From assembly GCA_964344485.1 (NCBI GenBank), contig CAYFNF010000005.1, positions 23,455-87,454 of the forward strand: DNA of 64,000 nt, written 5' to 3'. A program made the position numbers and the translations under genes. The notes beneath the pieces were generated by a model. It ran no database searches and was not told where the DNA came from. It saw only the letters and a program-made list of their open reading frames with translations. Of this stretch, positions 2-57,861 are shown in pieces. The DNA is from an uncultured Gammaproteobacteria bacterium (GTDB lineage: Bacteria > Patescibacteriota > Patescibacteriia > UBA9570 > XYC2-FULL-38-9). Within the stretch, counting starts at the first letter, position 1; every line of letters starts with the position of its first letter.

Positions 2-127
2 CAGACCAAAGAATGGGAAGGATACTTCCTGGTACCTACCTCAGCAACAGGGCTAAAACTACTCGCGAATGATCTATCATTCCTTCCAGAATCAGAGGTC
101 TATATTGACCTTGGTTTAGACGGATAA
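2..127 (+). CDS. 3-prime end of an unknown CDS truncated by the window start
   Basis: Open frame 2 from the window edge to TAA at 125-127. Host-like AT-rich codon usage. Followed by a terminator hairpin at 139-170. Confidence 0.3.
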   Translation, partial: QTKEWEGYFLVPTSATGLKLLANDLSFLPESEVYIDLGLDG

Positions 128-138
128 AATACTTATAA

Positions 139-170
139 AACGCGGCGTGATCAAGCGCGGCGTTTTTTAT
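139..170. terminator. Rho-independent terminator (A-tract / cgcggcg stem / T-tract)
   Basis: aaaaCGCGGCGtgatcaaGCGCGGCGtttttt. A 7-bp GC stem with one central mismatch, a T6 run downstream and an A4 run upstream, so it could act in both directions. Confidence 0.5.
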
Positions 171-224
171 TACGTTTTGTAGAACACGGGCACAATTGTA
201 GAACATAATCGTTTGTTTTTAGCA

Positions 225-253
225 TTGACAAACGGTATTTTTTAGTATATAAT
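225..253 (+). promoter_or_regulatory. Consensus sigma70-type promoter (TTGACA, 17 bp, TATAAT)
   Basis: TTGACA at 225-230, an exact 17-nt spacer, TATAAT at 248-253. It lies in AT-rich DNA about 170 nt upstream of the GC-rich islet A CDS. Confidence 0.55.
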
Positions 254-358
254 GATTAGTCATTTTGATAATGGGGAGAGAGTACCTATTAACAAAATGA
301 AATACTGAACAGAGGAGCATTCGCATCAATTCAGAACATTGAAATCTTTTCGGAACTT

Positions 359-390
359 CTCATTGCAGCGGTACACACAGCTGCAATGAG
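359..390 (+). promoter_or_regulatory. 11-bp perfect stem-loop in the 5-prime leader of the islet A gene
   Basis: ctcattgcagc (359-369), loop ggtacacaca, gctgcaatgag (380-390). No T-tract follows, so it is not a classical terminator. It sits exactly at the AT-rich/GC-rich junction, 18 nt before the GAGGAGG RBS (409-415). Confidence 0.5.
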
Positions 391-422
391 AAGCATCGAG
401 GAAAACCCGAGGAGGAATCACC

Positions 423-923
423 ATGCGATCCATCGCTGCTTTCGCAAGTTTCGGTATCATCGTGAGTGTCGCGGCATCCGGATGCGGCCCCTGGCCCTTC
501 GGGGAGGTCTGCGACCAGCGCAACCAGTTGCTGTTCGCGGGCATCCTGTCCGAGTCCAGCGGCCCGCAGTGCACGTCGCACGACTACGACGACGACGGGC
601 ACGACGCGGCGTACGACCAGGACGACCGGCTCGACCGGCACGACAACAACTGGTACGACCCGGCCGACGTGTACCCGGACGGCCCGGACGGCTCGCACAT
701 CGGCGACATCTCGTGGTGCATCGTCGAGGAGACGGGCCCGGTCGACGACTACGACGTCGTCTACGACTGGTCCTGCATCCGCGACTACTGGGCCGACCGG
801 CTCGACGAGCTCTGCGAGGCCTGGGAGGACGGCACGTTCGACCTGGAGGAGCACTCGATCGACTCGCTCGACGAGGCCCACTACCAGCGAGAGGCAGACG
901 CCTACGAGGAGTACTGCACCTAG
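423..923 (+). CDS. Islet A: small secreted acidic Cys-rich protein, putative lipoprotein (166 aa)
   Basis: GAGGAGG RBS 7 nt before the ATG. N-terminal hydrophobic signal with a lipobox-like VAASGC. Mature part is Asp/Glu-rich with 7 Cys. GC content far above host. The overlapping ORFs in other frames are Arg/Pro-rich frame shadows. Confidence 0.55.
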   Translation: MRSIAAFASFGIIVSVAASGCGPWPFGEVCDQRNQLLFAGILSESSGPQCTSHDYDDDGHDAAYDQDDRLDRHDNNWYDPADVYPDGPDGSHIGDISWCIVEETGPVDDYDVVYDWSCIRDYWADRLDELCEAWEDGTFDLEEHSIDSLDEAHYQREADAYEEYCT

Positions 924-1198
924 CTGGTTCGACCAGCACGTCCCCGCCGCCGCACCACCGCCACACGACGACACCGACTACCGCGCCGGGCGAACCCGGC
1001 ATCCCTAGGTGGGTCGACTGTAGCTTCCATGCACAGCAGTCGACACACCGCTTCCCCTGGCCTGGACTATTACGTCAAGGCAAGAGGAAGCATCATTAAT
1101 AGCTGCGCTTCTCGCACCACTCACTCGACTACAAAGAGCCGTCTTCGCGGCACACGTAGTCTCGTGAGCGCTGCTGCAGCGCTATATCAGTTAAACTT

Positions 1199-1285
1199 AA
1201 AAAGCGCGGAGGTGATATTGCCGCAGGACGGTTGGCCCAGCGAGAGCTGGGTTTTAGTCCGAGGTAATATCACGGAGCGCTTTTT
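1199..1285. other. Nested stem-loop element (long A5/T5-flanked hairpin with an internal GAGA tetraloop hairpin)
   Basis: aaaaagcgc(1199-1207)/gcgcttttt(1277-1285) outer stem. ggtgatatt/aatatcac inner stem. cccagc-GAGA-gctggg at 1236-1251. Lies between islet A and the 3-prime end of tRNA-Met. Confidence 0.4.
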
Positions 1286-1297
1286 AATTTATGATTG

Positions 1298-1371
1298 TGG
1301 CAGGGGTGAGAATTGAACTCACGACCCCAGGCTTATGAGTCCTGTGCTCTAACCAACTGAGCTACCCTGCC
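1298..1371 (-). tRNA. tRNA-Met (anticodon CAU; elongator type, or possibly tRNA-Ile2 with lysidine)
   Basis: Reverse complement: GGCAGGG TA GCTC AGTTGGTTA GAGC A CAGGA CTCATAA GCCTG GGGTC GTGAG TTCAATT CTCAC CCCTGCC A. 7-bp acceptor, GTGAG/CTCAC T-stem, CAT anticodon. G1:C72 argues against initiator. CCA is not encoded. Confidence 0.85.
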
Positions 1372-1424
1372 ATGGGACACGACACAGAGTATATAAAAAA
1401 AAGGATAACTTGTCTAGTCTGCGT

Positions 1425-14471: not shown

Positions 14472-17063
14472 TTACTCAAGCGCTTCAAGTGACTGCTGCA
14501 GAGCGTCGCGCTCAGCTTCGCGCTCCTTCTTGGACTCCTCTGTCTGCTGAATTACTTGCTCAGGTGCGTTCTCAGTAAACTTCTTGTTCTTCAGTTTTTT
14601 CTCTACTTGCGCGATATATTGTGAAATATGTTTTATCTCTTTTTCAATACGCTGCTTCTCTTTTTCTACATTAATAACCCCATCGAGTGGCAGAACGAGT
14701 TTCACTTCCCCGGTTACAACGGTCGCGCTATGAGTAAACTCTTTTTCTTTCACGAACTCTACACGTGCAAGATGCTGAATGAGTGCTGTATGTGATTCTT
14801 CCATTCCAGGATCTACTACCTCTAACTGCTTCCCTGGTTCAATGCGATACTCACGGCGGATATTTCGAATCGACGTGATCAACTCTTGTATTGTACTGAA
14901 CTGCTTCTCTATCTCTGGCTGAATCTTGCTAGTCTCTGCTGTTGGCCACTCTTGAACAATGAGCAAACTCTCTTTTCCCATCTGTTTCCACAGAACCTCT
15001 GTAACAAAAGGTATATACGGATGAGTAAGGATCACTACGCTCTCTAAGACTTGCCGCGCTACAGTATTATTCGGCTGGATCTTTGATGCTTCAATATACC
15101 AGTCTGCGAACTCATGCCATACGAAATCATACAGCCTCTCTGCTGCTTGGCTGAATTGATACTGTTCAAAATCATTAGTTACTTCCTGCGTTACTTGATT
15201 GACTCGAGATAAGATCCACTGATCTGCAAGCGTTAATTCTTGCGTATCGTCCGTTGGTTCCTGAGATAAGACATATCGAGAGATGTTCCAGAGTTTGTTG
15301 ACGAAATTTCTCGCGTCTTCCACTTTCTCTTCATAGAAACGTGCATCATTCCCTGGCGCAATGCCTTTGAGCAAACTCAAACGCAGTGCATCTGTTCCAT
15401 ACTTTTTACAAATTTCTATTGGATCAATACCGTTGCCTGCGGACTTGGAGAATTTTTTCCCTTCCTTATCGCGCAGAATACCGTGCACATATACATTATG
15501 GAATGGGATATCGTCCAATGCGTACGTTGACATCAAAATCATTCGTGCAAGCCAAAGAAAAATTATCTCATACCCCATCTGCATCCAGCTCGTTGAGTGA
15601 TAGGTTCGGAGATCATCACTCTGCTCTGGCCACCCTAGCGTGGAGAACGTCCACATTCCTGAAGAGAACCACGTATCTAAGGTATCTTCATCTTGCTGCC
15701 AGTCCTTTCCTGGAGATTCTGTGCCGACCTGTATGTCATCGCCGTTATACCATACTGGAATGCGGTGCCCCCACCAGATCTGCCGACTAATACACCAGTC
15801 GCGGAGATTATCGATCCAATGCAAGTACGTTTTATGGAATCGCTCTGGAATGATGATCACTTGCCTCTCTTTGTCTTGCTTATGACCAGTAGTCACTGCG
15901 TCACGCATTAACTCTTTTAAGGATTTTCCGCGACCAGGGATCTCTTTATTCACATCCACGAACCATTGGTCCATAGGTAACGCTTCAACTACGTCCCCAA
16001 ACCGATCAGAAGTACCGACCGAATGTGTAATCTCTTCATTGTTTGTAATTAATCCTTGCTTCTCTAACCATGCAACAAGCTTCTCTCGCGCTTCTATGGT
16101 GGTGAGTCCTTCATACTCCTTCCCCGCAGCAGATGTCATCAGCCCATCCTCCCCAATCACCTTTATTAATCCAATTTCTGGCTTCTTCTGGTACATCTCA
16201 AAATCCGCTTGGCTATGCGCTGGTGTCACGCCCACTGCACCAGTCCCGTACTCTGGGTCCACCGTATCGTCTGCGATGATAGTTATTGCAAGAGGGGTCT
16301 CAGCACCGATATCTACGGTATACTGCTTGCCGACATACTCTTTATACCGCTTATCATCAGGGTGTACTGCTACTGCAGTATCACCGAGCTTGGTCTCTGG
16401 ACGCGTAGTTGCAATCTCAATTGGGAAGTCTTTTGAGTATTTAAATGTATACACCGTAGTTTGCTGGTCCACATACACGAGTTCATCTTCTGAACACGTA
16501 GACTGTCCTTTAACTGACCAATTCACAACGCGATATCCGCGATAGATCAGTCCATCGTCGTACATGAGACGGAACATCTCATTCACAGCAGCTGAACGCT
16601 CTTCATCAAACGTGTACGCTAGGCGAGACCAGTCACAGCTGGTACCCATCTTGCGCACCTGTGACAGAATAGTACCTTTACACTCTTCTGCATAATCACG
16701 AATAATCTCTAATAACTTCTCGCGGCCGTAATGCTGCCGTGGGTTATCTATGCCCTTCTTTTTTTCATTGTCTTCTACACGAGCTTGAGTGGCCACTGCA
16801 GCGTGGTCTGTGCCTGGAACCAATAGAGCTTTCTTTCCTCGCATGCGCTGATACCGCAACTCTACATCCATTAGTGAATTTTCCAGTGCATGTCCCAAAT
16901 GCAACACTCCAGTCACATTTGGAGGAGGCATCATAATACAAAACGGCTCTTTTCGGTCACCTGGCAAGTTGTCTGGATTGAAAAATCCCGACTCTTCCCA
17001 GGTCGTATATATATCATCTTCGTATTTGTTTGCGTTATACGCTTTTTCCATAGTATTTGACAT
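14472..17063 (-). CDS. valS: Valine--tRNA ligase
   Basis: PPPNVTGVLHLGHA (HIGH), KFSKS (KMSKS), editing domain, C-terminal coiled coil typical of ValS. I put the start at the MSNTMEKAYN Met (17063) rather than the longer ORF start. Confidence 0.9.
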   Translation of the reverse strand: MSNTMEKAYNANKYEDDIYTTWEESGFFNPDNLPGDRKEPFCIMMPPPNVTGVLHLGHALENSLMDVELRYQRMRGKKALLVPGTDHAAVATQARVEDNEKKKGIDNPRQHYGREKLLEIIRDYAEECKGTILSQVRKMGTSCDWSRLAYTFDEERSAAVNEMFRLMYDDGLIYRGYRVVNWSVKGQSTCSEDELVYVDQQTTVYTFKYSKDFPIEIATTRPETKLGDTAVAVHPDDKRYKEYVGKQYTVDIGAETPLAITIIADDTVDPEYGTGAVGVTPAHSQADFEMYQKKPEIGLIKVIGEDGLMTSAAGKEYEGLTTIEAREKLVAWLEKQGLITNNEEITHSVGTSDRFGDVVEALPMDQWFVDVNKEIPGRGKSLKELMRDAVTTGHKQDKERQVIIIPERFHKTYLHWIDNLRDWCISRQIWWGHRIPVWYNGDDIQVGTESPGKDWQQDEDTLDTWFSSGMWTFSTLGWPEQSDDLRTYHSTSWMQMGYEIIFLWLARMILMSTYALDDIPFHNVYVHGILRDKEGKKFSKSAGNGIDPIEICKKYGTDALRLSLLKGIAPGNDARFYEEKVEDARNFVNKLWNISRYVLSQEPTDDTQELTLADQWILSRVNQVTQEVTNDFEQYQFSQAAERLYDFVWHEFADWYIEASKIQPNNTVARQVLESVVILTHPYIPFVTEVLWKQMGKESLLIVQEWPTAETSKIQPEIEKQFSTIQELITSIRNIRREYRIEPGKQLEVVDPGMEESHTALIQHLARVEFVKEKEFTHSATVVTGEVKLVLPLDGVINVEKEKQRIEKEIKHISQYIAQVEKKLKNKKFTENAPEQVIQQTEESKKEREAERDALQQSLEALE

Positions 17064-17127
17064 AAGTATGATTATTTCGTTAAGTATATGTACCTCATAT
17101 CCCAATGACGGGAACTGGAGGGTGAAA

Positions 17128-17697
17128 GTGAGTGACTTTGTCAGGCGCGTGACCACGGTCAAGGCGCCTCATGGTGAATACAGGTTCACGCTGCAGAGCA
17201 CGGTGCAGCGTCGCGTCGAAGACCTCGAGGGGGCCGAAGCGCAGGCTGCGGTTCGTCGCATGCTGGAAGCGCTCGGAGTCTCCGAGGAACACGCCAACCA
17301 GATGCGTACGAACGACCTGCGAAGTGCATGCGAGGTCAAGCCGTTCCAGATCGATCATCCGGCGCAAGACGCGTACATCAACATGTCGGATCCGGCTCGT
17401 GCATCGGAACGAGTGGCCGTACCTCCCTCAGGTGGCTGCGTGCGTGCAGGTAGCGGTGCTCAAGTCGACGTGCCGCCTGGTTGTTCCCGTGTGGGCGACC
17501 AAGTGGCACCGCAGATGCCACCGCCAGCGCTCGTAGCTCTCTCGCAGAGTGCTCGGCCTGCTACCGCAGAACCGCACCTCCCGCCGGATGCGCTCCGAGA
17601 CGGCCAAGCCGTACCCGTACTCGACCCACAGCCTGTGGGACGATGGGCGCGCTTCTGCGCCTGGTGGCACCGACAGCGTCGGTCATGGGGTTGGTAG
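17128..17697 (+). CDS. Islet C: hypothetical protein (GC-rich; C-terminal half low-complexity, possibly frameshifted)
   Basis: GGAGG at 17117-17121, 6 nt before GTG 17128. First ~100 aa look globular (EYRFTLQSTVQRRVEDLEGAEAQAAVRRMLEALGVSEEHANQMRTNDLRSACEV). The remainder is Pro/Ala-rich. Several overlapping shadow ORFs exist, so strand and frame are uncertain. Confidence 0.35.
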   Translation: MSDFVRRVTTVKAPHGEYRFTLQSTVQRRVEDLEGAEAQAAVRRMLEALGVSEEHANQMRTNDLRSACEVKPFQIDHPAQDAYINMSDPARASERVAVPPSGGCVRAGSGAQVDVPPGCSRVGDQVAPQMPPPALVALSQSARPATAEPHLPPDALRDGQAVPVLDPQPVGRWARFCAWWHRQRRSWGW

Positions 17698-17748
17698 CCC
17701 AAGCGTGAACGCGCTGCTCTGACCGAGTCGGAGGAAACCGGTCTTTTT

Positions 17749-18723
17749 TTATTTCGAAAGAACTTTCACGTAGTATCCTTGCGACATTCTCTCCAAGAAC
17801 TTCTGATTATCTTTTTGAATAGACTGGTCAATTATGGACAGCCGCTGTTTTTGCCCTTCATCTACAACATATGGATCCACTACTCGAATCTTCGGTTTCA
17901 CGTGATAATCATAATCTGATGCATCTTCTTCAATAGATAGATTCTCCATATCGCTTAGCAGCTTCTTAATCTCTTTGTTATCAGAGCGCTTCATCTTTTT
18001 ATGTACCGCCTTATCTGTTGTGAACAAGTCTTCAAATGACAGAATCCCTTCTTCAATCGCGAGCTTCATAGCAGAGGCAAGCAAGTAGTACAACGCAGAC
18101 TGCAACGGGTGCGCCCATAGCTTTTCATTGGCAATACGGTACGCTTTTGTGAACTGCTTGGCTGCTTCAGTCTTCGTGAATACAATATCTCCGTCTACAA
18201 CTGAGAGGGCTTCCAACAATTCCTGTGCTTGCTGAACAGTTATCTGCTTGTCTACTACACAATCACGAAAGAAGTAATCAATGCGATCTGCGCACAGATC
18301 AGGCAGCTCTCGCTCGGCTAGAGGAAATGCACTTTTATCCAGTAGCTCCCACACAGAATACCCATGATCCTTTAACATCTTCGGGACCTCTGAATCAAAG
18401 ATGATTTTCTCTTGAAACTTTTCGTGGAAGGTCTGAGTGGTATCTTCAAACACAATGTCTGATACATGGGAGAACGCGGTGTGTGGAACATCATGCAGCA
18501 ATCCAAAGATCTGCTCTTTGACCGGCGCTTGAAAACGCTTGAGTAAATAATAGACACCGACGCTATGTTCGAATCGAGACGTCGTTAAATGTGGAAATCG
18601 AAAGATCGATGCGCCATATTGGTTCACATCTTTCAAACGCTGGATGGGCTTGCTAGATATCAACGCTTGAATGACTGGCTCATCTACAGTAAATGCTCCG
18701 TAAATGTTGTCGGTGTACTCCAT
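17749..18723 (-). CDS. HD-domain phosphohydrolase
   Basis: RFEHSVGV ... LLHDVPHTAFSH metal-binding H..HD..H..D pattern. Confidence 0.75.
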   Translation of the reverse strand: MEYTDNIYGAFTVDEPVIQALISSKPIQRLKDVNQYGASIFRFPHLTTSRFEHSVGVYYLLKRFQAPVKEQIFGLLHDVPHTAFSHVSDIVFEDTTQTFHEKFQEKIIFDSEVPKMLKDHGYSVWELLDKSAFPLAERELPDLCADRIDYFFRDCVVDKQITVQQAQELLEALSVVDGDIVFTKTEAAKQFTKAYRIANEKLWAHPLQSALYYLLASAMKLAIEEGILSFEDLFTTDKAVHKKMKRSDNKEIKKLLSDMENLSIEEDASDYDYHVKPKIRVVDPYVVDEGQKQRLSIIDQSIQKDNQKFLERMSQGYYVKVLSK

Positions 18724-25813: not shown

Positions 25814-25963
25814 CAGCGCTCACTTCAGAAAGCCCCTGCCAACGCGCAGGGGTTTTTTAATTTGCACAGACTCCACAGGATTGACAAATGCATCCTGTGC
25901 TGTATACTTGGACGATTTCCTCAAGAAGAGGTAAATCAGAGCCCCAAGTCCAGGAGGGACACT

Positions 25964-26420
25964 ATGGCTCGAATCTTGATGCTCGCCGCGCTCCTGCTCG
26001 TCACCGCCTGCAAAGACAAAGGTGACACCGACCGGGGCCTGCTGGCCATCAACCACATGGGCTACACGGTCAAGGTCTGGGTCTACCAGTCCTACGACTC
26101 CACCGGAGAGCAACAGCTGTGCGTGGACCAGGACCGAACAGCAGCTCACGAGCTCCTCAACGCTCCAGGACCAGGAAGAAGATGACCTGGAGTGGGATCC
26201 CGAGGACGAGGTCGACCTGTCCGCGAACTGCGACACGGAAGACACGTCCACAGTCTGCCCCGAGGAGTTCACCCCGTGCATCATCCTGCGTGTCACCGAC
26301 ACAGAGGGCAACTGGGACGTCAAGTCCGACCCAGCCATGTGGTACGACGGCATCATCTGCCTGATCACACCCGCAGACAGCGGCGACTCCGAGCAAGGCG
26401 ACGGCATCACCTGCGGCTGA
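25964..26420 (+). pseudogene. Islet D: lipoprotein gene split by a frameshift (N-terminal lipobox part 25964-26185, acidic Cys-rich C-terminal part to 26420)
   Basis: AGGAGG (25952-25957), 6 nt, ATG 25964. MARILMLAALLLVTAC lipobox. The frame ends at 26185, while the +1 frame continues with the protein-like LQDQEEDDLEWDPEDEVDLSANCDTEDTSTVCPEEF...ITCG to 26420. Both halves are GC-rich. Confidence 0.45.
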
Positions 26421-26480
26421 ACCAACGACTGGAACAGCTCGCACCCAGCGTGCATGAATCCGTCGGGCGCTAGAACGCAC

Positions 26481-26517
26481 GCGCCACGGACCAATGCTCT
26501 TTTTTTATTGCCGAAAC
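26481..26517 (+). repeat. 38-nt direct repeat, copy 1 (gcgccacggaccaatgctctttttttattgccgaaac)
   Basis: Near-identical to 31473-31510 (1 indel, 1 substitution). Both copies are on the plus strand. Confidence 0.7.
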
Positions 26518-26556
26518 ACCCTTCGTATCACGCTGAACGTTCCACCGATCTCCCGA

Positions 26557-31472: not shown

Positions 31473-31510
31473 GCGCCACGGACCAATGCTCTTTTTTTTA
31501 TTTCCGAAAA
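31473..31510 (+). repeat. 38-nt direct repeat, copy 2 (gcgccacggaccaatgctcttttttttatttccgaaaa)
   Basis: Begins 4 nt after the regulator stop codon. See copy 1 at 26481-26517. Confidence 0.7.
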
Positions 31511-31537
31511 AAAACCGTTGTTCCTGAAACAGGAAGC
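31505..31537 (-). terminator. Terminator of the islet E gene (ttcctg-aaa-caggaa then T9 on minus strand)
   Basis: Stem 31521-31535. The minus-strand continuation is caacggttttttttt. Confidence 0.5.
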
Positions 31538-31551
31538 GAACGGTGAGAACG

Positions 31552-31944
31552 CTACGGGGTGGTGTCCGGACGCAGGTCAGCGATACGCTGCTGCGTGGGC
31601 GGATGCATCTCGGTGAGCTCCATGAGGTGCTCCCACACCTCCAAGGTCATGGTCGTGCCGCCCATCAGACCAAGCACGAACTGCTCCTTGGTATTCATCC
31701 GGATGCGGATGTTCAGGTACCGGCCCTGGCGCCAGACCCGAGTGATCGATGCGTAGCTGTACTGCCCGAACATGACCTGATGCAGTACACGCATTTCGAG
31801 GTCGAACACGAAGATGCTGCCTGCATCAGCGTAGATCACGGTCCGTGCTTCTGCACGGAACAGCAGCCAGTCCACGGTGTGGAACGGCCGTACCACGATC
31901 TCGCGGATACCCCGTGCTCCCTTTAGGATGACGTCGTTTGCCAT
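31552..31944 (-). CDS. Islet E: hypothetical protein (130 aa, GC-rich)
   Basis: GGAGGAAG RBS (plus tcctcc 31952-31957), 7 nt before the ATG at 31944. Better amino-acid composition than the antisense 31543..31926 ORF. Confidence 0.5.
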   Translation of the reverse strand: MANDVILKGARGIREIVVRPFHTVDWLLFRAEARTVIYADAGSIFVFDLEMRVLHQVMFGQYSYASITRVWRQGRYLNIRIRMNTKEQFVLGLMGGTTMTLEVWEHLMELTEMHPPTQQRIADLRPDTTP

Positions 31945-31970
31945 TGGCTCTTCCTCCGGTGGTTGCGTAG

Positions 31971-32014
31971 ATAAGCAAAAGCGCCTCCCTGCAGGGAGAC
32001 GCGTTCTTGCTTAT
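31971..32014. promoter_or_regulatory. Long (~19-bp, interrupted) palindromic hairpin upstream of the islet E RBS / downstream of OCD-2
   Basis: ataagcaa-aa-gcgcctccctg|cagggagacgc-gtt-cttgcttat centred on CTGCAG. It could be the OCD-2 terminator or a leader structure analogous to the islet A hairpin. Confidence 0.4.
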
Positions 32015-33312: not shown

Positions 33313-33611
33313 GAAAAGATGATTATTATATAGTTAACAATTCATACCGCATCCGGGGGGAAATTCGAACACAGGGGGAACTGGCATGGTTCCGTATTCT
33401 GAATACTGTTTTGTGCGGTGTTTGTGATTCATAAGTGCACGTAGTATATACAACGTCATAACTACTGTCAATTATGTGCCTCTCATTGACAGAAACTCCT
33501 GTAATGATACATTCAAATTGAAGTAGCGGTCTTGTAGACTGCAGATAGAAAACGAGGGGGCGTCCCTCTATTTTTGTCTGCAGCACTCAACCGCTGCTAT
33601 CGGGATCATTC

Positions 33612-33989
33612 ATGCATCTGCTTCTACTCGTTCAGACCGCGTGGTACCACCGGAGCCAGGTGGTGCAAGATCGCATTCGCCGACAATTCGACCGCAACGT
33701 GCCAGGCGTCGTCCTGCCTCGGGCCGTGGTCGGAGGTGACGATCAGCTCGACGAAGCGCTCGCTCGCGCCGCGTTCATCACGCTGCTGACCAGCATGACA
33801 GGCGACGCCAGCAGCTTCCAGGTGGTCAGCTACACCCTCGAGCGGCGTGGCGACGACGAGCTGTGCTTCACGTTCGACCTCGAAGAGTCCGGCTGGACTT
33901 TCAAGCGGCCACAGCCTGGTGCGCATCACGTCTCCACCATTCGAGTGCGACTCGTGGACACCAGCACGCTCGCTGTGGTCGAGGCCTGA
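33612..33989 (+). CDS. Islet F: hypothetical protein (125 aa; strand ambiguous)
   Basis: GC-rich ORF. The antisense 33624..33929 ORF also has a GGTGGAG RBS, so the coding strand is unresolved. A plus-oriented hairpin plus T-run (33554-33575) precedes it. Confidence 0.3.
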   Translation: MHLLLLVQTAWYHRSQVVQDRIRRQFDRNVPGVVLPRAVVGGDDQLDEALARAAFITLLTSMTGDASSFQVVSYTLERRGDDELCFTFDLEESGWTFKRPQPGAHHVSTIRVRLVDTSTLAVVEA

Positions 33990-34135
33990 CCCAAGGCTAG
34001 CAGTCCGGGTTCAGACCCACACTGCTCCTTGCAGAGCCGCATCCCACGCGACGCCATTTCTGTACAATCGACGTCTCGGCCTCTCGCGTTCTTTTTTATT
34101 ACAAAGCCGCGCACTTGATGGCGCGGCGCTTGTTG

Positions 34136-34146
34136 GCACCCGCACG
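34136..34146 (+). repeat. Degenerate duplicate of the tRNA-Glu 3-prime segment (gcacccgcacg + gaatcg..cc.gg)
   Basis: 11/11 identical to 34299-34309. About 24 of 29 nt are similar over the T-arm / acceptor 3-prime half. It lies 163 bp from the intact tRNA, at the edge of islet F. Confidence 0.4.
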
Positions 34147-34299
34147 AAGAATCGGTTCCGGGGTTGGCGGTAGCGTGCCGCTGGCACCCTACCGATCGTT
34201 CAGCTGCGCTACGCTTGCTTCACTTCCAACCCTTCAATTTCCCGCCGCAGGATAATTAAAGAAAATCCGCCCCTCTTTGAGGGACGGATTATTCTTAAG

Positions 34300-39562: not shown

Positions 39563-40000
39563 ACGTTTTTTGTTATTAATTATTCCGCATGGAATTTAAA
39601 AATACCGTGCGTCGACAGTATATACGATATATAGAGCATTCTATTACAAAAACAAATGCCCCGCAATAATCAGCAGGCAAGAGAATGTATACACGGAAGA
39701 TTCGAGCCGTAGCCTGAATTTTCCGAGGTACACCTTCCCATGCTTGTCGTGCCTGCTGGTTACTATGGGGCATGACGTCAGCACCATTCTTATAAAAAGT
39801 AGCAAATTCACATCACAGAGTACTGCGATGAGAACATAGAAGAATATCATGGTTTTTCCGTTTTGTCAAGAGTAAATCATACACATGTTTTTCCCAGTTA
39901 AAAATGATATTTTTTAGCTAATATTAGGGTAAAAAAAACGGACGTGGTGAATGTCCGGGCTCATACTAGAGCCGTTGCCTACGTTCAGAGTCGAGGCGTA

Positions 40001-40942
40001 TCAGAGCCGACCTGCTGCACTCAGCACCGCGTGCAGGGTTCCGGTCGTGGAGACCGGGTTCTGCCACTGGACCCACCAGCAGTGTGCTTCGTCGATGCAG
40101 TGGTGATTGACGGTCGCGGACCGTTCTTGGCACATCATGCGCTCGTGCAGCCTCAGGGAGAAGATCGTGTCCTGAAGGCAGCTCACGATGTGTCGGGTAC
40201 CTGCCCAGCCTTCGCGACGCACTCGGGCGATCTCGGACTCTCCCCAGCCGTAGAAGAGCACCAGCTCCGGGAACAGGCGCGCTGAGTCGTTGGCCATGAG
40301 GCGCTCGTAGTCTTCGGCCAGGTCGCAGGGGCAGCCCGTTCCGGTGAACAGGTAGCGCACGGGCCAGCCCGTGTAGTGCATCCCTTCTCCGGAGGTCAGC
40401 GCGTTGAGAACACCCAGCAGCTCCGGGGTCGCACCCACCCACATCTTGGGCTGGGTCAGTGCGAACAGTGGGAAGTCCGGAACCGGAGCGATCTCGACCA
40501 GGTGCAGCGGGTTGATCACGGCGTGAAGCAGCAGCAGCTGCCGGCAGAGCAGCGCACCGAGCGAATGGCCGACCAGCGACACCTTTTGGTGCTCATCCAG
40601 AATGCCGTCCCAGTACAGCGACTCCATGATCGCGACCAGGTCCTGGATCTGCTCCTCCAGCGGTTGAGAGCCCAGGCCAGGCGGACGCCAGGCAGTCCCG
40701 ATCCCGTTGCGCTCCACCACCACGATGGTGTTGGGGAGCTCGTGGAGTTCAGTCCTGTTGATGGTCGTGCACCAGGTGGACCAGCCGCGTTGCTGGTAGC
40801 CGTGCACCAGCACCAGTGCCGGGCTCGTCTTGTCACCCAGGCGAGCATGCACCAGGCGCACACCCACCGAAGTGTTCAGCTCGTGCGTGTTGAAGCCCAT
40901 GCCTCCCATGGGCCTCGTGTCTCGACAGTGTTCCATCTTCAT
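40001..40942 (-). CDS. Islet G: alpha/beta-hydrolase (lipase/esterase, GHSxG nucleophile elbow)
   Basis: LVLVHGY oxyanion region and VSLVGHSLGALL nucleophile motif. GC-rich. Hairpin cggac-N9-gtccg plus T8 downstream (minus strand) at about 39950-39976. Confidence 0.75.
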   Translation of the reverse strand: MKMEHCRDTRPMGGMGFNTHELNTSVGVRLVHARLGDKTSPALVLVHGYQQRGWSTWCTTINRTELHELPNTIVVVERNGIGTAWRPPGLGSQPLEEQIQDLVAIMESLYWDGILDEHQKVSLVGHSLGALLCRQLLLLHAVINPLHLVEIAPVPDFPLFALTQPKMWVGATPELLGVLNALTSGEGMHYTGWPVRYLFTGTGCPCDLAEDYERLMANDSARLFPELVLFYGWGESEIARVRREGWAGTRHIVSCLQDTIFSLRLHERMMCQERSATVNHHCIDEAHCWWVQWQNPVSTTGTLHAVLSAAGRL

Positions 40943-41084
40943 GATCCTTGTTCAGCATCTTGCCGAACTGTTCGAGGCGCGGATATTTTATAGAAATGAA
41001 TATAAAAGTCAATAGGAAGCACTTGCTTTTTTGCCTATTTTTTCGTATAGTAATAGAGAAGTAAAGCAAAACAGCCCTATAGAC

Positions 41085-44506: not shown

Positions 44507-44646
44507 TACTAATCGTCCTTTTTGACAAACCGAACCACTATGGTAAGGTACTACGTCAGAAAAGGTTGACGACTGAGAAGACCGCGCACAGTACTGCGTT
44601 TTTTTCTCAGGCGTGAACGTCAGCGCCTGCCTCAAGAGGAGGAACG

Positions 44647-45201
44647 ATGAGACTCTTACTGCTCATCGCAAGCATGATGCTCGTGGGGTGCCCCAAGCAA
44701 GCGCCCCAAGGACCGCTCCCCGGGGAGCACATGCCACGCGTACACGCGGAACCCGGCCCCACAGCCGGCGACTGCACGTCCGTGGTCACCTTCGAGTGGA
44801 CCGGACACCCGGACTACGACACGCTCTACGTGCTCATCAAGCTCGAGGGGCAGTACTTCGGTGTCGGGGCTCGCCTCGAGGAGCCGGACGTGACGTACGC
44901 GGCGTGCGTGGACTACCCGCTCAAGTGGCTCGGTGTCATCCAGTTCTACACCAACCCCCTGCCACCGGGCGTGAACATGAACCCGGACCCGCAGTGGGAC
45001 ACCATCCCGTGGTCCTACTACGGCTGGGAGCCGGCCACGTTCAAGCTGCCCTCGACTACGGTCTGGAAGCGTGAGAGGGGCGCCAGCGGCCACACTTCGG
45101 CCATGGTCAAGACCGAGGTCCCGGTCGGGCTGGTCATCCGCTTCTACCCCGGAGCGGAGCAACTCTCAACACGGCCCGGAATCCTCTACATGGAATTCTA
45201 G
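44647..45201 (+). CDS. Islet H: lipoprotein (184 aa, GC-rich)
   Basis: GAGGAGGA RBS 5 nt before the ATG. MRLLLLIASMMLVGC lipobox. The alternative-frame ORFs are shadows. Confidence 0.55.
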   Translation: MRLLLLIASMMLVGCPKQAPQGPLPGEHMPRVHAEPGPTAGDCTSVVTFEWTGHPDYDTLYVLIKLEGQYFGVGARLEEPDVTYAACVDYPLKWLGVIQFYTNPLPPGVNMNPDPQWDTIPWSYYGWEPATFKLPSTTVWKRERGASGHTSAMVKTEVPVGLVIRFYPGAEQLSTRPGILYMEF

Positions 45202-45233
45202 GCTCCAGCGCGAGACATCAGCTTTTTTTTATT

Positions 45234-50417: not shown

Positions 50418-51857
50418 ATGGCCGTACTCTCTCATCCAACAATCAAGAAAGCTCTGTCGTTCTGTCGCGTACACACACTACTCACTCTCATTGCACTGGG
50501 AGGCTTAATTGTCTTACTGGGATTTGCGAGCAATCGTTTCTCTTGGGTAATGCTCTTTGGAGTGATCGGAGCGATAGGCCTTGCGTTTATTGTATTAAAA
50601 AATCCATGGCATGGAATTTTATTATTAGCATTTTTTATCCCGTTTGAGCGTTTAGGATCATACGACATTGCTGGTGCGACTGTACGCCCATCACAGGTCA
50701 CTGCGTTGTTAACGCTCATCTCATTCATCATGTTCTATTTAGGTCGGAAGAAATTTCCTGTACCGCGATTCCCGATCATATGGCCTCTAGCGATATTTGC
50801 TGTGGTGGGATTCATCGGTCTATTGAATGCACCACAATTAGAACGCTCGGTTATGGTGTTGGCGTTTCAACTGTTTACGTTCTCAATCGCATTTTTATTA
50901 CCATTGGCAATTGTAAAAAAGGAACAATTAAAGCAGTTGTTTCCGTTCTTCTTTGTGTCTATGTTGTTGGTCACGTTGTTTGGCTTATTTCAATTCGCTG
51001 GAGATCTTATCGGACTGCCTCCGGAAATCACCGGATTACGGGAGCTCTATACCAAAGACGTGCTCGGATTCCCGCGCATTCAATCCACTGCACTGGAACC
51101 GCTCTATTTTGCAAACTACCTGCTCATTCCTCTAGGAATTCTGTTCTCCATGTTCTTTGCACGCGACCGTTCACTTCACCCGTTGTTTACTATTGGACTT
51201 ATTGGATTGGGTGTGGTTAACCTGCTTCTGACTGTTGCTCGAGGAGGATACATCGCATTTGCCGTCTGTATACTTGTTTTAGTGATCGCATACGTTACAA
51301 AACTCTTCACATGGAGAAATATCTTCTACGCGTTAACATCTCTTGTTATTGTCGGGATCGTGCTTTCGCAAGTGGTGAGTTTTGATGAAGCGTATACGCA
51401 GTTCGTTGGACATGTGGGAAATATATTTGAAGGCGCTTCCTATAACGAGCGTGTAGAGATGTTTGAAAAATCTATAGATGCATGGCGAGAGCATCCGATC
51501 GTTGGTATCGGCTCGGGTAGTTTTGGCCCTTACGAAAGCCATCACCCCTATATGATCCCAGACCACGGATGGCGCATTGTCAATAATGAGTATCTGGAAC
51601 TGCTGGCAGAGAATGGTGTCATTGGTTTTGGTGCCATGGTCAGTGTCTTCCTGATTGTAGTTGTTCGTTCTATTAAAGCGCTCATAAAAACAAAAGACCT
51701 CTACCTGCGTACGATTCTACTCGGTTTGTTTGCTGCGTTCATCGGAATACTCGTACAGTACAATACGTTCTCGATTCTCTATATTGTTCATATCTGGTTT
51801 GCTATTGGACTGTTGATTGCTATCCAAAACATGATTCTTCATCCTAAAAAACAATGA
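50418..51857 (+). CDS. O-antigen ligase / polymerase-like membrane protein (Wzy_C domain)
   Basis: Polytopic, with a large periplasmic loop (GIGSGSFGPYESHHPYMIPDHGWRIVNNEYLELLAENG), as in the WaaL/Wzy family. Start set at the internal Met after the GT4 stop. Confidence 0.7.
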   Translation: MAVLSHPTIKKALSFCRVHTLLTLIALGGLIVLLGFASNRFSWVMLFGVIGAIGLAFIVLKNPWHGILLLAFFIPFERLGSYDIAGATVRPSQVTALLTLISFIMFYLGRKKFPVPRFPIIWPLAIFAVVGFIGLLNAPQLERSVMVLAFQLFTFSIAFLLPLAIVKKEQLKQLFPFFFVSMLLVTLFGLFQFAGDLIGLPPEITGLRELYTKDVLGFPRIQSTALEPLYFANYLLIPLGILFSMFFARDRSLHPLFTIGLIGLGVVNLLLTVARGGYIAFAVCILVLVIAYVTKLFTWRNIFYALTSLVIVGIVLSQVVSFDEAYTQFVGHVGNIFEGASYNERVEMFEKSIDAWREHPIVGIGSGSFGPYESHHPYMIPDHGWRIVNNEYLELLAENGVIGFGAMVSVFLIVVVRSIKALIKTKDLYLRTILLGLFAAFIGILVQYNTFSILYIVHIWFAIGLLIAIQNMILHPKKQ

Positions 51858-53167
51858 GCCTGATCATCTCACTTATTGCAGCTGTTGTCCTTGCAGTGAT
51901 TGCATGGCGAGATCGGACCTGGGGTATTGCGCTAGTGCTGTTTGCTCTGCCAACATACTTGGTGCGTTTTTCTGTACTTGGCATCCCTGTAACAATGCTT
52001 GAGTTGCTGATACTCACTCTATTTGTTGTATACATTGCCTCTCGCGCTACTCGCTCGGAAACAAAGAAGCGTCTTCGCGCTACACGTTCCCTCGCGAGCA
52101 CCGCTGCGGCAACCTACAATCGATACAGATTCGAAATATGGGGAGCTCTAGTGCTGGTTGTTGCGGGAATCATCAGTTTGATTATCACTCCTGACCTCCG
52201 AGCAGGCGCAGGAGTCTTTAAAGCGTATATATTAGAACCGATACTGCTGTTCATCGTCATTCTTGGATCTATTTCAACTACAAAACAAGTGCGACAGCTC
52301 TTTTGGGCGTTAGGATTATCTGCAGTAGTGATTTCGCTGATCGTTGCAGTCCAATATTTCACTGGATGGGGCATCCCAGAACCTTGGCATGACTTCCCGG
52401 GTCGGCGAGCTGTTGGTCTGTACGGTTTTCCGAATGCAGTAGGGCTGTATATTGCACCGATCCTTACTGCGTTCATCGGATTGCTACTACATGTACGGTT
52501 CTTCACGCGAAAAAACGTACTTTGGATCTTAATGATCATTCTGTTGATGGGTTTTTCCCTGATCGCATCGCAAGTTGAAGGTGCTATCATTGCTGCGGCT
52601 GCTGGAGTAGGTGTGATGTTACTGTTCACCCGCTGGAGATGGTGGGCAATTGGAGCAGCAGTGCTTGGTGGGGTTATTGCCTTTGCATATGAACCGAGCA
52701 GAGAGCTACTACTGTTCCAAGATGTCTCCGGAGATGTGCGTCTAGCACTTTGGCATGGCACGTGGAGCTTGCTTTCAGACCGCCCATGGTTCGGAGCAGG
52801 GCTTGGAGCCTTCCCGATTGTGTATGACATCTATCGACTGCCTTCACACGTTGAACTGCTACAGTACCCACATAATCTATTCTTAAACTTCTGGGTAGAG
52901 CTCGGCATTCTGGGCTTGCTCTGGATTGTAGGTACGTGCGTGCTGTTTATCACCACTGCAATCAAAACAATCTCGCGTTCGCACGGTTACTCTATCGTGC
53001 TACTAGGAATTCTGACCTGTCTTCTGGTCTACGGTATAGTGGATGTTCCGTATTTCAAGAACGACCTCTCGGTACTGTTCTGGTTCTGGCTTGCATTGCT
53101 CTCTCTCTTCGCGCACAAAAAAATCACCTCTCCTTCGGACACTTCAAAGCTTGCTACGAAAAAATAG
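51854..53167 (+). CDS. O-antigen ligase-like membrane protein, second paralog
   Basis: Polytopic, with a Wzy_C-like loop (WHGTWSLLSDRPWFGAGLGAFP ... YPHNLFLNFWVELG). Confidence 0.7.
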   Translation: MSLIISLIAAVVLAVIAWRDRTWGIALVLFALPTYLVRFSVLGIPVTMLELLILTLFVVYIASRATRSETKKRLRATRSLASTAAATYNRYRFEIWGALVLVVAGIISLIITPDLRAGAGVFKAYILEPILLFIVILGSISTTKQVRQLFWALGLSAVVISLIVAVQYFTGWGIPEPWHDFPGRRAVGLYGFPNAVGLYIAPILTAFIGLLLHVRFFTRKNVLWILMIILLMGFSLIASQVEGAIIAAAAGVGVMLLFTRWRWWAIGAAVLGGVIAFAYEPSRELLLFQDVSGDVRLALWHGTWSLLSDRPWFGAGLGAFPIVYDIYRLPSHVELLQYPHNLFLNFWVELGILGLLWIVGTCVLFITTAIKTISRSHGYSIVLLGILTCLLVYGIVDVPYFKNDLSVLFWFWLALLSLFAHKKITSPSDTSKLATKK

Positions 53168-56993: not shown

Positions 56994-57116
56994 AGATCTT
57001 ATTTACTATTGTTATATGGTATAGAATACCATGTTTTATATGTAAAAAAAAGCTACATAACCACAGGTGCGTTCATGTCTTTTTATGGCCATAAAAAAAG
57101 CCTCCTCAAGATCACG

Positions 57117-57803
57117 CTACGATGCAGGGGTCTCGGGCAGGAGCTGGGTGAGCGCCTTGATGCCGGCGTGCGTGATGACGATGCCCTCCTTCTGGCTGAT
57201 CAGCCAGTCTTTGCGCGTCCAGTCCGCGAACACTCGGATCACGGTCTCTTCGCGCGAGCAGACCATGGTCGCGTAGTCCCTGCGTGCCAGGCGCAGTGCC
57301 ACGAACTGACCACGAGCATCGTTGGGAACTGCGAACCGTGCGCCCATGTCCAGGAGCAGACGCGCCAGGCGGATCTCGACTGCGTCGCGGATCGTCAGGT
57401 CCGCTTGTCGTCGAGCGTGGTCCACCTTGTTGGCGAGCGACTCCATGATCAGTCGGCAGACCAGCGGGTCCTCTTCCATGAGCTGGCGTAGCGCCTCTCG
57501 TTCGACCTGGAGTGCCTTGATCTGGTCCAGGGCCGTGAGCGTGATCGGACTGGGGTTGCCCGTGACCACTTCGACCTCTCCGACCAGGTCGTGCCGACCG
57601 ATCAGACCCATGGTGAACGTGGTGCCGTCACCGAGCAGGTGTTCGATCTTGGCTGCTCCACAGCACAGGAAGAGTACAGGTGAACTGGGATCGCCGCGAT
57701 GCCAAATGATCCGATCTCGCGGGAAGCGAACGACCGTGGCGAACGGCCCCAGTAGCTGTTGGGTGGTTGTCGGTGGAGTGGATGCAGGTGGCAAGATTGC
57801 CAT
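57117..57803 (-). CDS. Islet I: Crp/Fnr-family transcriptional regulator
   Basis: cNMP-binding beta-barrel (ILFLCCGAAKIEHLLGDGTTFTMGLIGRHDLVGE) and C-terminal HTH (RRDYATMVCSREETVIRVFADWTRKDWL). AAGGAGA RBS 6 nt before the ATG. GC-rich. Confidence 0.75.
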   Translation of the reverse strand: MAILPPASTPPTTTQQLLGPFATVVRFPRDRIIWHRGDPSSPVLFLCCGAAKIEHLLGDGTTFTMGLIGRHDLVGEVEVVTGNPSPITLTALDQIKALQVEREALRQLMEEDPLVCRLIMESLANKVDHARRQADLTIRDAVEIRLARLLLDMGARFAVPNDARGQFVALRLARRDYATMVCSREETVIRVFADWTRKDWLISQKEGIVITHAGIKALTQLLPETPAS

Positions 57804-57832
57804 CGCAAATCTCCTTGCTTAGGTGCAGCCGT

Positions 57833-57861
57833 ACCTTACGGGATTCTATTTTTTTCGTCAA
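57833..57861 (-). promoter_or_regulatory. Possible promoter of the islet I gene (TTGACG, 17 bp, TAAGGT)
   Basis: Minus-strand TTGACG (plus 57856-57861), 17-nt spacer, weak -10 TAAGGT (plus 57833-57838). Confidence 0.3.

Follow-up and report, generated by a model that had tools for sequence, protein, structure and literature searches.

A GC-saturated lipoprotein gene tract within a conserved transcription unit beside tRNA-Met in Patescibacteria

Within a 64 kb stretch of a Patescibacteria (Candidate Phyla Radiation, CPR) genome, referred to here as the window (guanine plus cytosine, GC, content 45.9%), the gene for a 166-residue acidic, cysteine-rich prolipoprotein lies at positions 423 to 923 of the forward strand, facing a convergent tRNA-Met gene. 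Positions 225 to 1296 (islet A below) are one transcription unit at a locus conserved across a Patescibacteria clade, and the codons for the mature part of the protein stand out from that unit as a GC-saturated tract. We lean, with moderate confidence, towards the view that this mature-domain cassette was replaced at the conserved locus by recombination from a GC-richer relative. The valyl-tRNA synthetase (ValRS) encoded in the window is 69-71% identical to those of a Candidatus Kerfeldbacteria metagenome-assembled genome (MAG) and of other Patescibacteria (CPR) MAGs.

The loci used for comparison are Patescibacteria contigs named L001, L002, L003 and so on, nine of which encode members of the lipoprotein family, and the ten loci referred to below are the window together with L001, L002, L083, L084, L085, L086, L087, L088 and L089. 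The unit, consisting of promoter, upstream boxes, structured leader, Cys-rich acidic lipoprotein gene and, in most cases, a convergent tRNA-Met, recurs in at least nine further Patescibacteria contigs. The alignment of the window with L001 and L002 extends from the C-terminus of a DUF4352-like gene, over the terminator of that gene, the promoter, leader and lipoprotein gene, as far as the convergent tRNA-Met, and L083, L085 and L089 carry the synteny on to genes for M23/FG-GAP, Band_7, YidC, DHH, PilB and ValRS proteins. The convergent tRNA-Met follows the lipoprotein gene in 8 of the 10 loci (the window, L001, L002, L083, L084, L085, L088 and L089), and so the link between gene and tRNA that a first-pass annotation of this DNA had drawn is an arrangement kept in relatives. 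Scans of genome and metagenome contigs with the PAD-like neighbour and with the family alignment returned no relatives. A random alien insert beside a tRNA was also considered and was rejected, as the whole transcription unit is orthologous in relatives and foreign composition is limited to the mature-protein part and about 140 bp after it.

The unit had been described as switching to GC-rich composition exactly at a hairpin in the leader. The compositional islet is genuine and GC does rise at 356, but the sharp break lies further on, inside the gene, at the junction of signal peptide and mature protein. GC is 0.35 in the 5' part of the leader (259-355), 0.50-0.55 across the hairpin, the Shine-Dalgarno (SD) region and the signal peptide (356-482), 0.68-0.69 in the tract from 483 to 1066 on the forward strand (the codons of the mature protein and some 140 nt of non-coding DNA 3' of them, together the proposed imported segment) and 0.48-0.52 in the remaining 3' flank (1067-1296). 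Maximum-likelihood change points fell at 461 (support 351-473) and 1066 (support 992-1082). GC content at third codon positions (GC3) was 11/20 (0.55) in the signal-peptide codons 1-20, which lie at 423-482, are of intermediate composition and precede the lipobox Cys21 codon at 483-485, and 144/146 (0.99) in the mature part (Fisher p = 4e-8), while the first 20 codons of host genes differ little from the rest (0.37 vs 0.41).

For the lipoprotein gene as a whole GC3 was 0.93, compared to 0.28-0.54 (about 0.42) in 44 host genes. All 86 of its two-fold and isoleucine codons end in G or C (59 of 59 NNY codons in C, 18 of 18 NNR codons in G, and 9 of 9 Ile codons being ATC). The ratio K/(K+R) is 0 in the lipoprotein and 0.57 in host proteins, and other islet proteins also favour arginine; this preference for Arg over Lys points to long residence in GC-rich DNA. 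Selection of codons for high expression was rejected as the source of the bias, since the ribosomal protein L19 (rpL19) gene has a GC3 of just 0.35 and the non-coding stretch at 924-1066, with a GC of 0.69, is at the same level as the coding part.

The lipoprotein tract is not the only DNA of this kind in the window, where at least seven other GC-rich single-gene islets were found. About 11 GC-rich segments are present, compared to 2.6 per 64 kb in 80 related loci, a density approximately four times higher, and GC3 of the islet genes (0.76-0.93) is separated by a gap from that of host genes (0.28-0.54). One islet, at 17054-17748, contains a forward-strand open reading frame (ORF) of about 190 residues that has a TTGACA promoter and a T-run terminator of its own, and it splits an HD-domain gene (17749-18723, reverse strand) from the ValRS gene; the two lie directly side by side in the nearest relatives, L003 and L009, so that this islet is a demonstrable insertion. 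The islet at 25928-26530 holds a lipoprotein-like gene (MARILMLAALLLVTAC...) which is apparently frameshifted, the frame at 25964-26185 continuing in another frame to 26420. That at 33575-34260 carries a 125-residue ORF adjoining tRNA-Glu, together with a 17/19 copy of the tRNA-Glu 3' end at 34136-34154; the intact tRNA is 145 bp away, and the copy may represent either an att-like duplication or what is left of a donor tRNA. The islets at 39927-40966, 44575-45231, 57086-57843 and 31510-32011 are single genes, each with a promoter-like site and with a GC3 of 0.76-0.87 compared to the host range, and their products are an alpha/beta hydrolase (reverse strand), an ORFan lipoprotein, a Crp/Fnr regulator next to tRNA-Ala and a 130-residue ORF. 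The lipoprotein of islet 44575-45231 had no homologue among 5.8 billion proteins, and a tblastn search of plasmids with the Crp-like protein gave only matches below 31% identity, indicating no donor. Isolated GC3-rich genes also occur elsewhere (L003 620-1414, 0.89 vs 0.56; L049 3564-4532, 0.68 vs 0.37; L061 682-1176, 0.78 vs 0.26), and therefore such islets are not unique to this genome, only denser in it. Three window proteins, one of them encoded in another of the GC-rich islets, are recorded from a single NCBI contig (122,270 bp), and therefore the islets belong to the public assembly and are not a peculiarity of the window. Exact look-ups of the 166-residue protein and of its neighbour in the contig index gave no match, and the lipoprotein gene appears to be uncalled in the public assembly although neighbouring proteins are present.

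By host markers the window is nearest to L089 (Band_7, 85% identity; C-terminus of the DUF4352-like protein, 79%; and the start of the leader, GTCATT...GGAGAGAG), whereas its lipoprotein is only 34% identical to that of L089 and 58-59% identical to those of the GC-rich loci L001 and L002. Deviant composition and codon usage, together with lipoprotein identities that run opposite to the host markers, are the marks of horizontally acquired DNA, with the reservation that the markers are short. An exact run of 27 nt is common to the window gene and that of L001 at 504-530, within the conserved block that directly follows the lipobox. In one report Patescibacteria are described as competent, with homologous recombination retained and gene exchange mainly inside the phylum (PMC12455944), and according to earlier work cited there (PMC12455944) many of them keep competence and homologous-recombination genes. 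It is because of the composition break, the tree incongruence, the abundance of islets, the inserted islet at 17054-17748 and this reported recombination that recombinational replacement is favoured here, and a recombination event is what we infer.

In such an event the promoter, the upstream GTAGAACA boxes, the leader and the signal peptide would stay in place as resident DNA, while approximately 483-1066 (the mature-domain codons and about 140 bp) would enter by homologous recombination from a GC-richer relative, anchored in conserved sequence, for example the WPxGEVCDQRNQ block that holds the 27-nt run shared with L001, and on the side of the 3' hairpin or the tRNA. A sigma-70 promoter behind the two GTAGAACA boxes would drive a structured leader of about 163 nt followed by a strong ribosome-binding site (RBS), transcription would stop at hairpins common to the convergent tRNA-Met, and this genome would hold many single-gene GC-rich imports, the lipoprotein tract among them.

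Several observations weigh against this account. In every one of the ten loci GC3 is higher in the lipoprotein gene than in its neighbours (0.66-0.93 vs 0.36-0.76), neighbour figures being given for eight of the ten, without L084 and L088: 0.93 vs about 0.42 in the window, 0.93 vs 0.74 in L001, 0.90 vs 0.76 in L002, 0.82 vs 0.56 in L083, 0.66 vs 0.42 in L085, 0.80 vs 0.48 in L086, 0.81 vs 0.36 in L087 and 0.90 vs 0.50-0.63 in L089, with lipoprotein values of 0.88 in L084 and 0.82 in L088. One recent import is therefore insufficient, and repeated replacement from a GC-rich pool or a locus-specific GC drive would be required. The incongruence test uses short markers (39, 180 and 567 aligned residues), the closest known homologue, at just 58-59% identity, points to no donor, occlusion of the SD by the leader lacks statistical support, and selection that keeps the mRNA weakly structured around the start codon could account in part for the low GC3 of the first codons. 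The same GC3 excess in all ten loci speaks for vertical inheritance of a locus kept GC-rich over the long term, by GC-biased gene conversion at a tRNA-Met hot spot or by mRNA or codon selection, with no recent import. All family members favour Arg over Lys (K/(K+R) 0-0.23 vs 0.33-0.68), a sign of a long GC-rich coding history, the two MopE-like genes at the L089 locus also have a GC3 of 0.83-0.84, and signal-peptide codons are far lower in GC3 than mature-domain codons in L083, L084 and L085 as well. Vertical descent is nevertheless the less probable explanation, if one to be taken seriously: the rpL19 value means that high expression favours no G/C-ending codons here, the 3' non-coding DNA is just as GC-rich, unrelated GC-rich islets (the Crp regulator, the hydrolase, ORFans) lie dispersed across the window, an insertion among them, the lipoprotein tree is at odds with host markers, and a GC3 of 0.99 in a 46% GC genome demands an extremely strong drive. 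A bolder possibility, which we regard as doubtful, is that the tRNA-Met locus is a dedicated exchange site, where mature-domain cassettes of acidic Cys-rich surface proteins from a GC-rich pool are repeatedly recombined behind a fixed expression module composed of regulator boxes, consensus promoter, structured leader and signal peptide, or else a hot spot of GC-biased conversion. Recurrent cassette exchange or biased conversion would explain both the GC excess in all ten lineages and the break at the lipobox; silent cassettes were sought in the rest of the 64 kb window and none was found.

Two further explanations turn on the tRNA and on the assembly. Islet A might be the remnant of a small integrase-borne island inserted site-specifically in the 3' end of tRNA-Met, as the lipoprotein gene adjoins a tRNA gene, L084 and L089 have direct duplications of 24-31 nt of the tRNA-Met 3' end lying 120-140 nt from the intact gene, and another islet in the window has the 17/19 copy of a tRNA-Glu 3' end. 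Such an origin is very unlikely, however, and was rejected because islet A itself has no tRNA-Met fragment (200-1296 searched); moreover no integrase gene is nearby (the neighbours are PAD, M23/FG-GAP, Band_7 and YidC genes), the GC-rich tract begins inside a gene and stops about 230 bp short of the tRNA, and promoter, leader and gene order are orthologous across genomes. The GC-rich tracts could alternatively be assembly chimeras of co-occurring AT-rich and GC-rich relatives, given that the contig comes from a metagenome-type assembly, that the GC-rich relatives L001 and L002 have the same locus and a nearly identical tRNA-Met, and that three islets touch tRNA genes. This would need more than 14 precise switches within 64 kb, yet the reading frame is unbroken across the junction at 483, the borders share no long run with any known relative (the longest, 27 nt, is inside the tract), and every islet consists of one entire gene, promoter and terminator included, set between intact host genes, all of which makes chimerism highly improbable. 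Recombinational replacement at a conserved locus thus remains the reading that we prefer.

The product of the gene was said by the first-pass annotation to be a secreted, Asp-rich lipoprotein with seven cysteines, and this description holds for the ORF at 423-923. The N-terminus (MRS-IAAFASFGIIVSVA-ASG-C21) has a positive n-region, a hydrophobic core and the lipobox AASG|C of a lipoprotein signal. Cysteines are at 21, 30, 50, 99, 118, 131 and 165, and the protein has 28 Asp, 13 Glu and 0 Lys, with an isoelectric point of about 4.05 and a net charge of about -35. Only two homologues were found among 5.8 billion clustered proteins (P0001, E = 6e-44, and P0002, E = 3e-43), and when 1.84 billion representatives were searched with a profile, 12 proteins were listed, of which 11 were further members and one was already among those two, giving a family of 14. 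All 14 are 135-210 residues long with a hydrophobic stretch before the lipobox Cys; this Cys never varies, and each of the six others is either invariant too or conserved in at least 90% of members. The family pattern is WPxGEVC[DN]Q..F.G....C..HD[YF]D[DE]D...A.YD.DDR ... C ... W.C..YW..L..LC.AW..G ... YC.

No match was found for any of the 14 members in Pfam or NCBIfam (TSP3_bac, MopE, DUF4352 and others) at E <= 0.1-1, and a profile search of Protein Data Bank (PDB) sequences with the family found nothing. In viral contigs neither the lipoprotein family nor the leader hairpin was found. AlphaFold2 with three sequences gave an unusable model (predicted local distance difference test, pLDDT, 42); 14 sequences were needed, and with these a small alpha/beta domain was predicted (pLDDT 78, predicted template-modelling score 0.73) with helices at 35-43, 116-135 and 151-165 and a beta hairpin at 100-114. 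Foldseek found no neighbour of this predicted fold in PDB or BFVD. The family is tiny and uncharacterised, without a Pfam, PDB or fold match. The mature product would be a 146-residue surface domain lipidated at Cys21, extremely acidic and lysine-free, and probably held by three disulfides, and the Asp cluster HDYDDD...YDxDDR suggests that it is probably a divalent-cation-binding or adhesive surface protein. The grounds for this proposal are the lipobox, the conservation of six Cys, the clustering of Asp residues and the gene neighbourhood, with M23/FG-GAP, the Cu-binding MopE-like genes of L089 and, in the window, a gene for a TSP3-repeat protein. Several copies of a repeat some 25 nt long (GTTCCCGTGCTAGAAGTCCGAGTTC and its complement) surround the GC-rich lipoprotein and MopE-like genes at 4800-7640 in L089.

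Upstream of the unit, the 3' end of the DUF4352-like lipoprotein gene occupies 2-127 on the forward strand and is resident DNA (GC3 0.36), its frame-2 translation (...WEGYFLVP...NDLSFLPESEVYIDLGLDG*) being 64-79% identical to the C-termini of the 191-192-residue genes upstream of the homologues in L001, L002 and L089. Its terminator hairpin at 134-169 on the same strand (inverted repeat 134-147/156-169, then a T-run) has an aligned counterpart in L001 and L002. Two direct TTGTAGAACA boxes follow at 177-205, again on the forward strand, as a candidate regulator-binding site, and the GTAGAACA copies at 179-186 and 198-205 are the sole exact ones within the window. Boxes of the form TGTTCYRC/GTAGAACA are set at fixed spacing from the -35 box (-23/-27 and -43/-46) in five loci, the window, L001, L002, L083 and L086, and they probably bind a regulator. 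In L002 the upstream TGTTCYRC/GTAGAACA boxes are arranged as a palindrome.

The sigma-70-type promoter at 225-253 on the forward strand had been called a perfect consensus and was found to be so (TTGACA at 225-230, a 17-nt spacer and TATAAT at 248-253, a 12/12 match); it is the only perfect match in the 64 kb, where 0.03 would be expected. Six loci have a common promoter layout of TTGACA, a 17-nt spacer that is T-rich and often carries TG, TATNNT, 5 nt and then GTC. The earlier suggestion of strong expression is consistent with this, and the promoter is probably strong, the -35 box, spacing, -10 box and first transcribed bases GTC being kept in six orthologous loci. The comparative evidence that the promoter of the lipoprotein gene is real and regulated is good, so far as sequence comparison can speak to it, and from promoter geometry and the conserved GTC, transcription would start near 259.

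The leader predicted from this start (259-422, forward strand, about 163 nt) is strongly structured, with a minimum free energy of -54 kcal/mol (z = -6.5), and none of 200 shuffles folded as well. A 5'-terminal hairpin (260-300 on the forward strand, arms 260-275/285-300, 88% complementary) was present in every fold computed. The second hairpin had been reported as a perfect 11-bp stem-loop at 359-390, and the 11-nt arms 359-369/380-390 are indeed exact, the true helix being longer: on the forward strand at 356-393, 14 perfect pairs (356-369/380-393) are followed by one mismatch, 2 more pairs and an ACAC loop. The GAGGAGG reported ahead of the start codon is likewise in place as the SD (409-415, forward strand), with ATG 423 seven nt further on. 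In L001 and L002 the central sequence of the leader is unrelated to that of the window, yet both form long rods (z = -8.5 and -6.7 respectively), and the apical sequence varies between orthologues. The leader of L089 has a triple tandem repeat, GGGGAAAGAAAAGCGCGGT.

Of the roles that had been proposed for the hairpin, none was borne out. Other copies, as would be expected of a repeat or element terminus, were sought in the window, 86 related loci and viral contigs and none was found; at about 97-135 nt downstream of the predicted transcription start it is poorly placed for an operator; and it lies away from the sharp composition boundary and hence is no obvious recombination scar. We conclude that it is a lineage-specific version of a heavily paired leader common to all orthologues and not an element end, and that its most plausible role is an action on mRNA stability or translation, which it probably has.

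A dedicated sensor that gates translation by hiding the RBS (an RNA thermometer, a riboswitch or a protein-binding switch) is unlikely by comparison. In one minimum-free-energy fold UCUUUUCGG (345-353) pairs with the SD sequence CCGAGGAGG (407-415), and UUUUCGG (347-353) has two mutually exclusive partners, the SD region (407-415) and UCGAGGA (396-402), the latter a possible decoy; in L001, L002, L083 and L086, moreover, the leader begins with a conserved GGUCUUU(U)C that pairs with the SD or with the region of the start codon. The leader was initially read as an SD-masking switch on these grounds, a reading whose support was lost with a slightly longer construct, in which UCUUUUCGG favours the decoy over the SD, and with shuffled controls. 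The SD was unpaired with a probability of 0.40 compared to 0.44 +/- 0.15 for shuffled upstream sequence, and in silico this changed only from 0.34 at 10 C through 0.40 at 37 C to 0.54 at 55 C, much like shuffled leaders, which gives no support to a thermometer-like role. Folding without the hairpin lowered SD accessibility to 0.07 instead of raising it. In Rfam only tRNAs reached gathering scores, and nothing relevant appeared at E <= 1 in window positions 100-1400, L001 or L002.

Beyond the gene, the 3' flank carries the palindromes that had been noted, and the whole of it is a chain of hairpins (fold z = -7.7) that runs up to the 3' end of tRNA-Met. The hairpin at 1008-1049 on the forward strand (13-nt arms 1008-1020/1037-1049, 92% complementary) has a loop, ...CCATGCAC..., that resembles those of L083 and L086, and it is probably the counterpart of a two-tier 3' hairpin that follows the lipoprotein gene in orthologous loci (L001 3898-3945, L002 1744-1790, L083 6460-6500, L084 862-907 and L086 920-959). 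The 11-bp basal stem of this hairpin shows compensatory changes in relatives (GGCCGCCCGAG/CTCGGGCGGCC vs GGCCGCTCGAG/CTCGAGCGGCC and GGTCGCCCAAG/CTTGGGCGACC). A long nested hairpin with A- and T-run flanks at 1194-1290, unique in the window and assigned to neither strand (arms 1194-1207/1277-1290, with 1212-1222/1263-1273 nested inside), is likely to be a bidirectional terminator common to the lipoprotein mRNA and tRNA-Met. The tRNA-Met (CAU) itself is at 1297-1371 on the reverse strand, convergent with the lipoprotein gene (ARAGORN; Rfam 69.9 bits), with a promoter-like site, TAGACA-17-TATACT, at 1388-1416 on the same strand (10/12 match). Between these features, 1107-1180 on the forward strand resembles part of a Wzy_C (O-antigen-ligase-like) gene, with about 78% identity over 75 nt to 52037-52110 (tblastx E = 1.6e-5); the Wzy_C gene lies at 51854-53167, and 1107-1180 may be the remnant of a gene fragment. 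The direct duplications of the tRNA-Met 3' end (24-31 nt, enclosing 120-140 bp) are at about 978-1001/1140-1165 in L084 and 7505-7535/7642-7716 in L089, and they look like footprints of site-specific insertion at tRNA-Met in these relatives.

Patescibacteria are thought to live attached to other microbes, and both their surface proteins and their habits of gene exchange are poorly known. The locus offers an uncharacterised, probably abundant surface lipoprotein family with a confident fold model that has no known structural relative, and a conserved module of promoter, regulator boxes and leader that could be used for the study of CPR gene expression. DNA of foreign composition that starts inside a gene at a GC-enriched locus makes cassette replacement or GC-biased conversion testable by population metagenomics; the finding would gain in interest if recurrent exchange or biased conversion at this locus were true, and an exchange site would imply population-level surface variation. 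If this is only an ordinary horizontally acquired accessory gene, the genome still carries unusually many single-gene imports, with about 11 GC-rich segments in 64 kb.

Compared with known systems, the tract is closest in kind to the transferred genes and small islands of Patescibacteria (PMC12455944), which are likewise compositionally deviant single genes in streamlined CPR genomes, exchanged mostly within the phylum, and for which competence and homologous recombination are the proposed route (PMC12455944). Unlike those islands (PMC12455944), it starts within a gene whose promoter, leader and signal peptide are resident, its locus is GC-enriched in every lineage sampled, and the islet density of the window is about four times that of 80 related loci. 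With integrase-mediated, tRNA-linked genomic islands it shares a position adjoining a tRNA 3' end and, in two orthologous loci, short duplications of the tRNA-Met 3' end, but islet A is less than 1 kb long, has no integrase or flanking tRNA repeat, and its gene order and promoter are conserved.

The Vsa/Vlp systems of Mycoplasma and the pilE/pilS system of Neisseria combine a fixed 5' expression site with exchangeable mature-domain cassettes. The lipoprotein locus is similar in that promoter and signal peptide are conserved and the mature domain has diverged (34-59% identity), with a junction near the lipobox and a conserved start of the mature domain that could anchor recombination, and differs in that no silent cassettes or invertase sites were found in the 64 kb, so that any exchange would be between genomes and not within one. 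Hairpins that stabilise mRNA are known from 5' untranslated regions such as the E. coli ompA leader, and SD-masking RNA thermometers from the ROSE and fourU elements. The leader described here resembles these in its hairpin at the extreme 5' end, its long stable helix and a U-rich stretch able to pair with the SD, but it has no sequence or covariance-model similarity to them (Rfam), and SD masking is insignificant and barely temperature-dependent in silico.

With Asp-rich calcium-binding repeats (bacterial TSP3, PF18884; the MopE-type metal-binding motif, PF11617) the family shares an Asp cluster (HDYDDD...YDxDDR, and DxDGxxDG in P0001 and P0002) in a secreted Cys-rich protein, and the 14 members differ from them in lacking any Pfam or NCBIfam match and in a predicted fold with no Foldseek neighbour in PDB or BFVD. 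Overall the locus is a variation on known themes, namely horizontal gene transfer islets, tRNA-linked hot spots and variable surface lipoproteins, with a product that belongs to a small new family.

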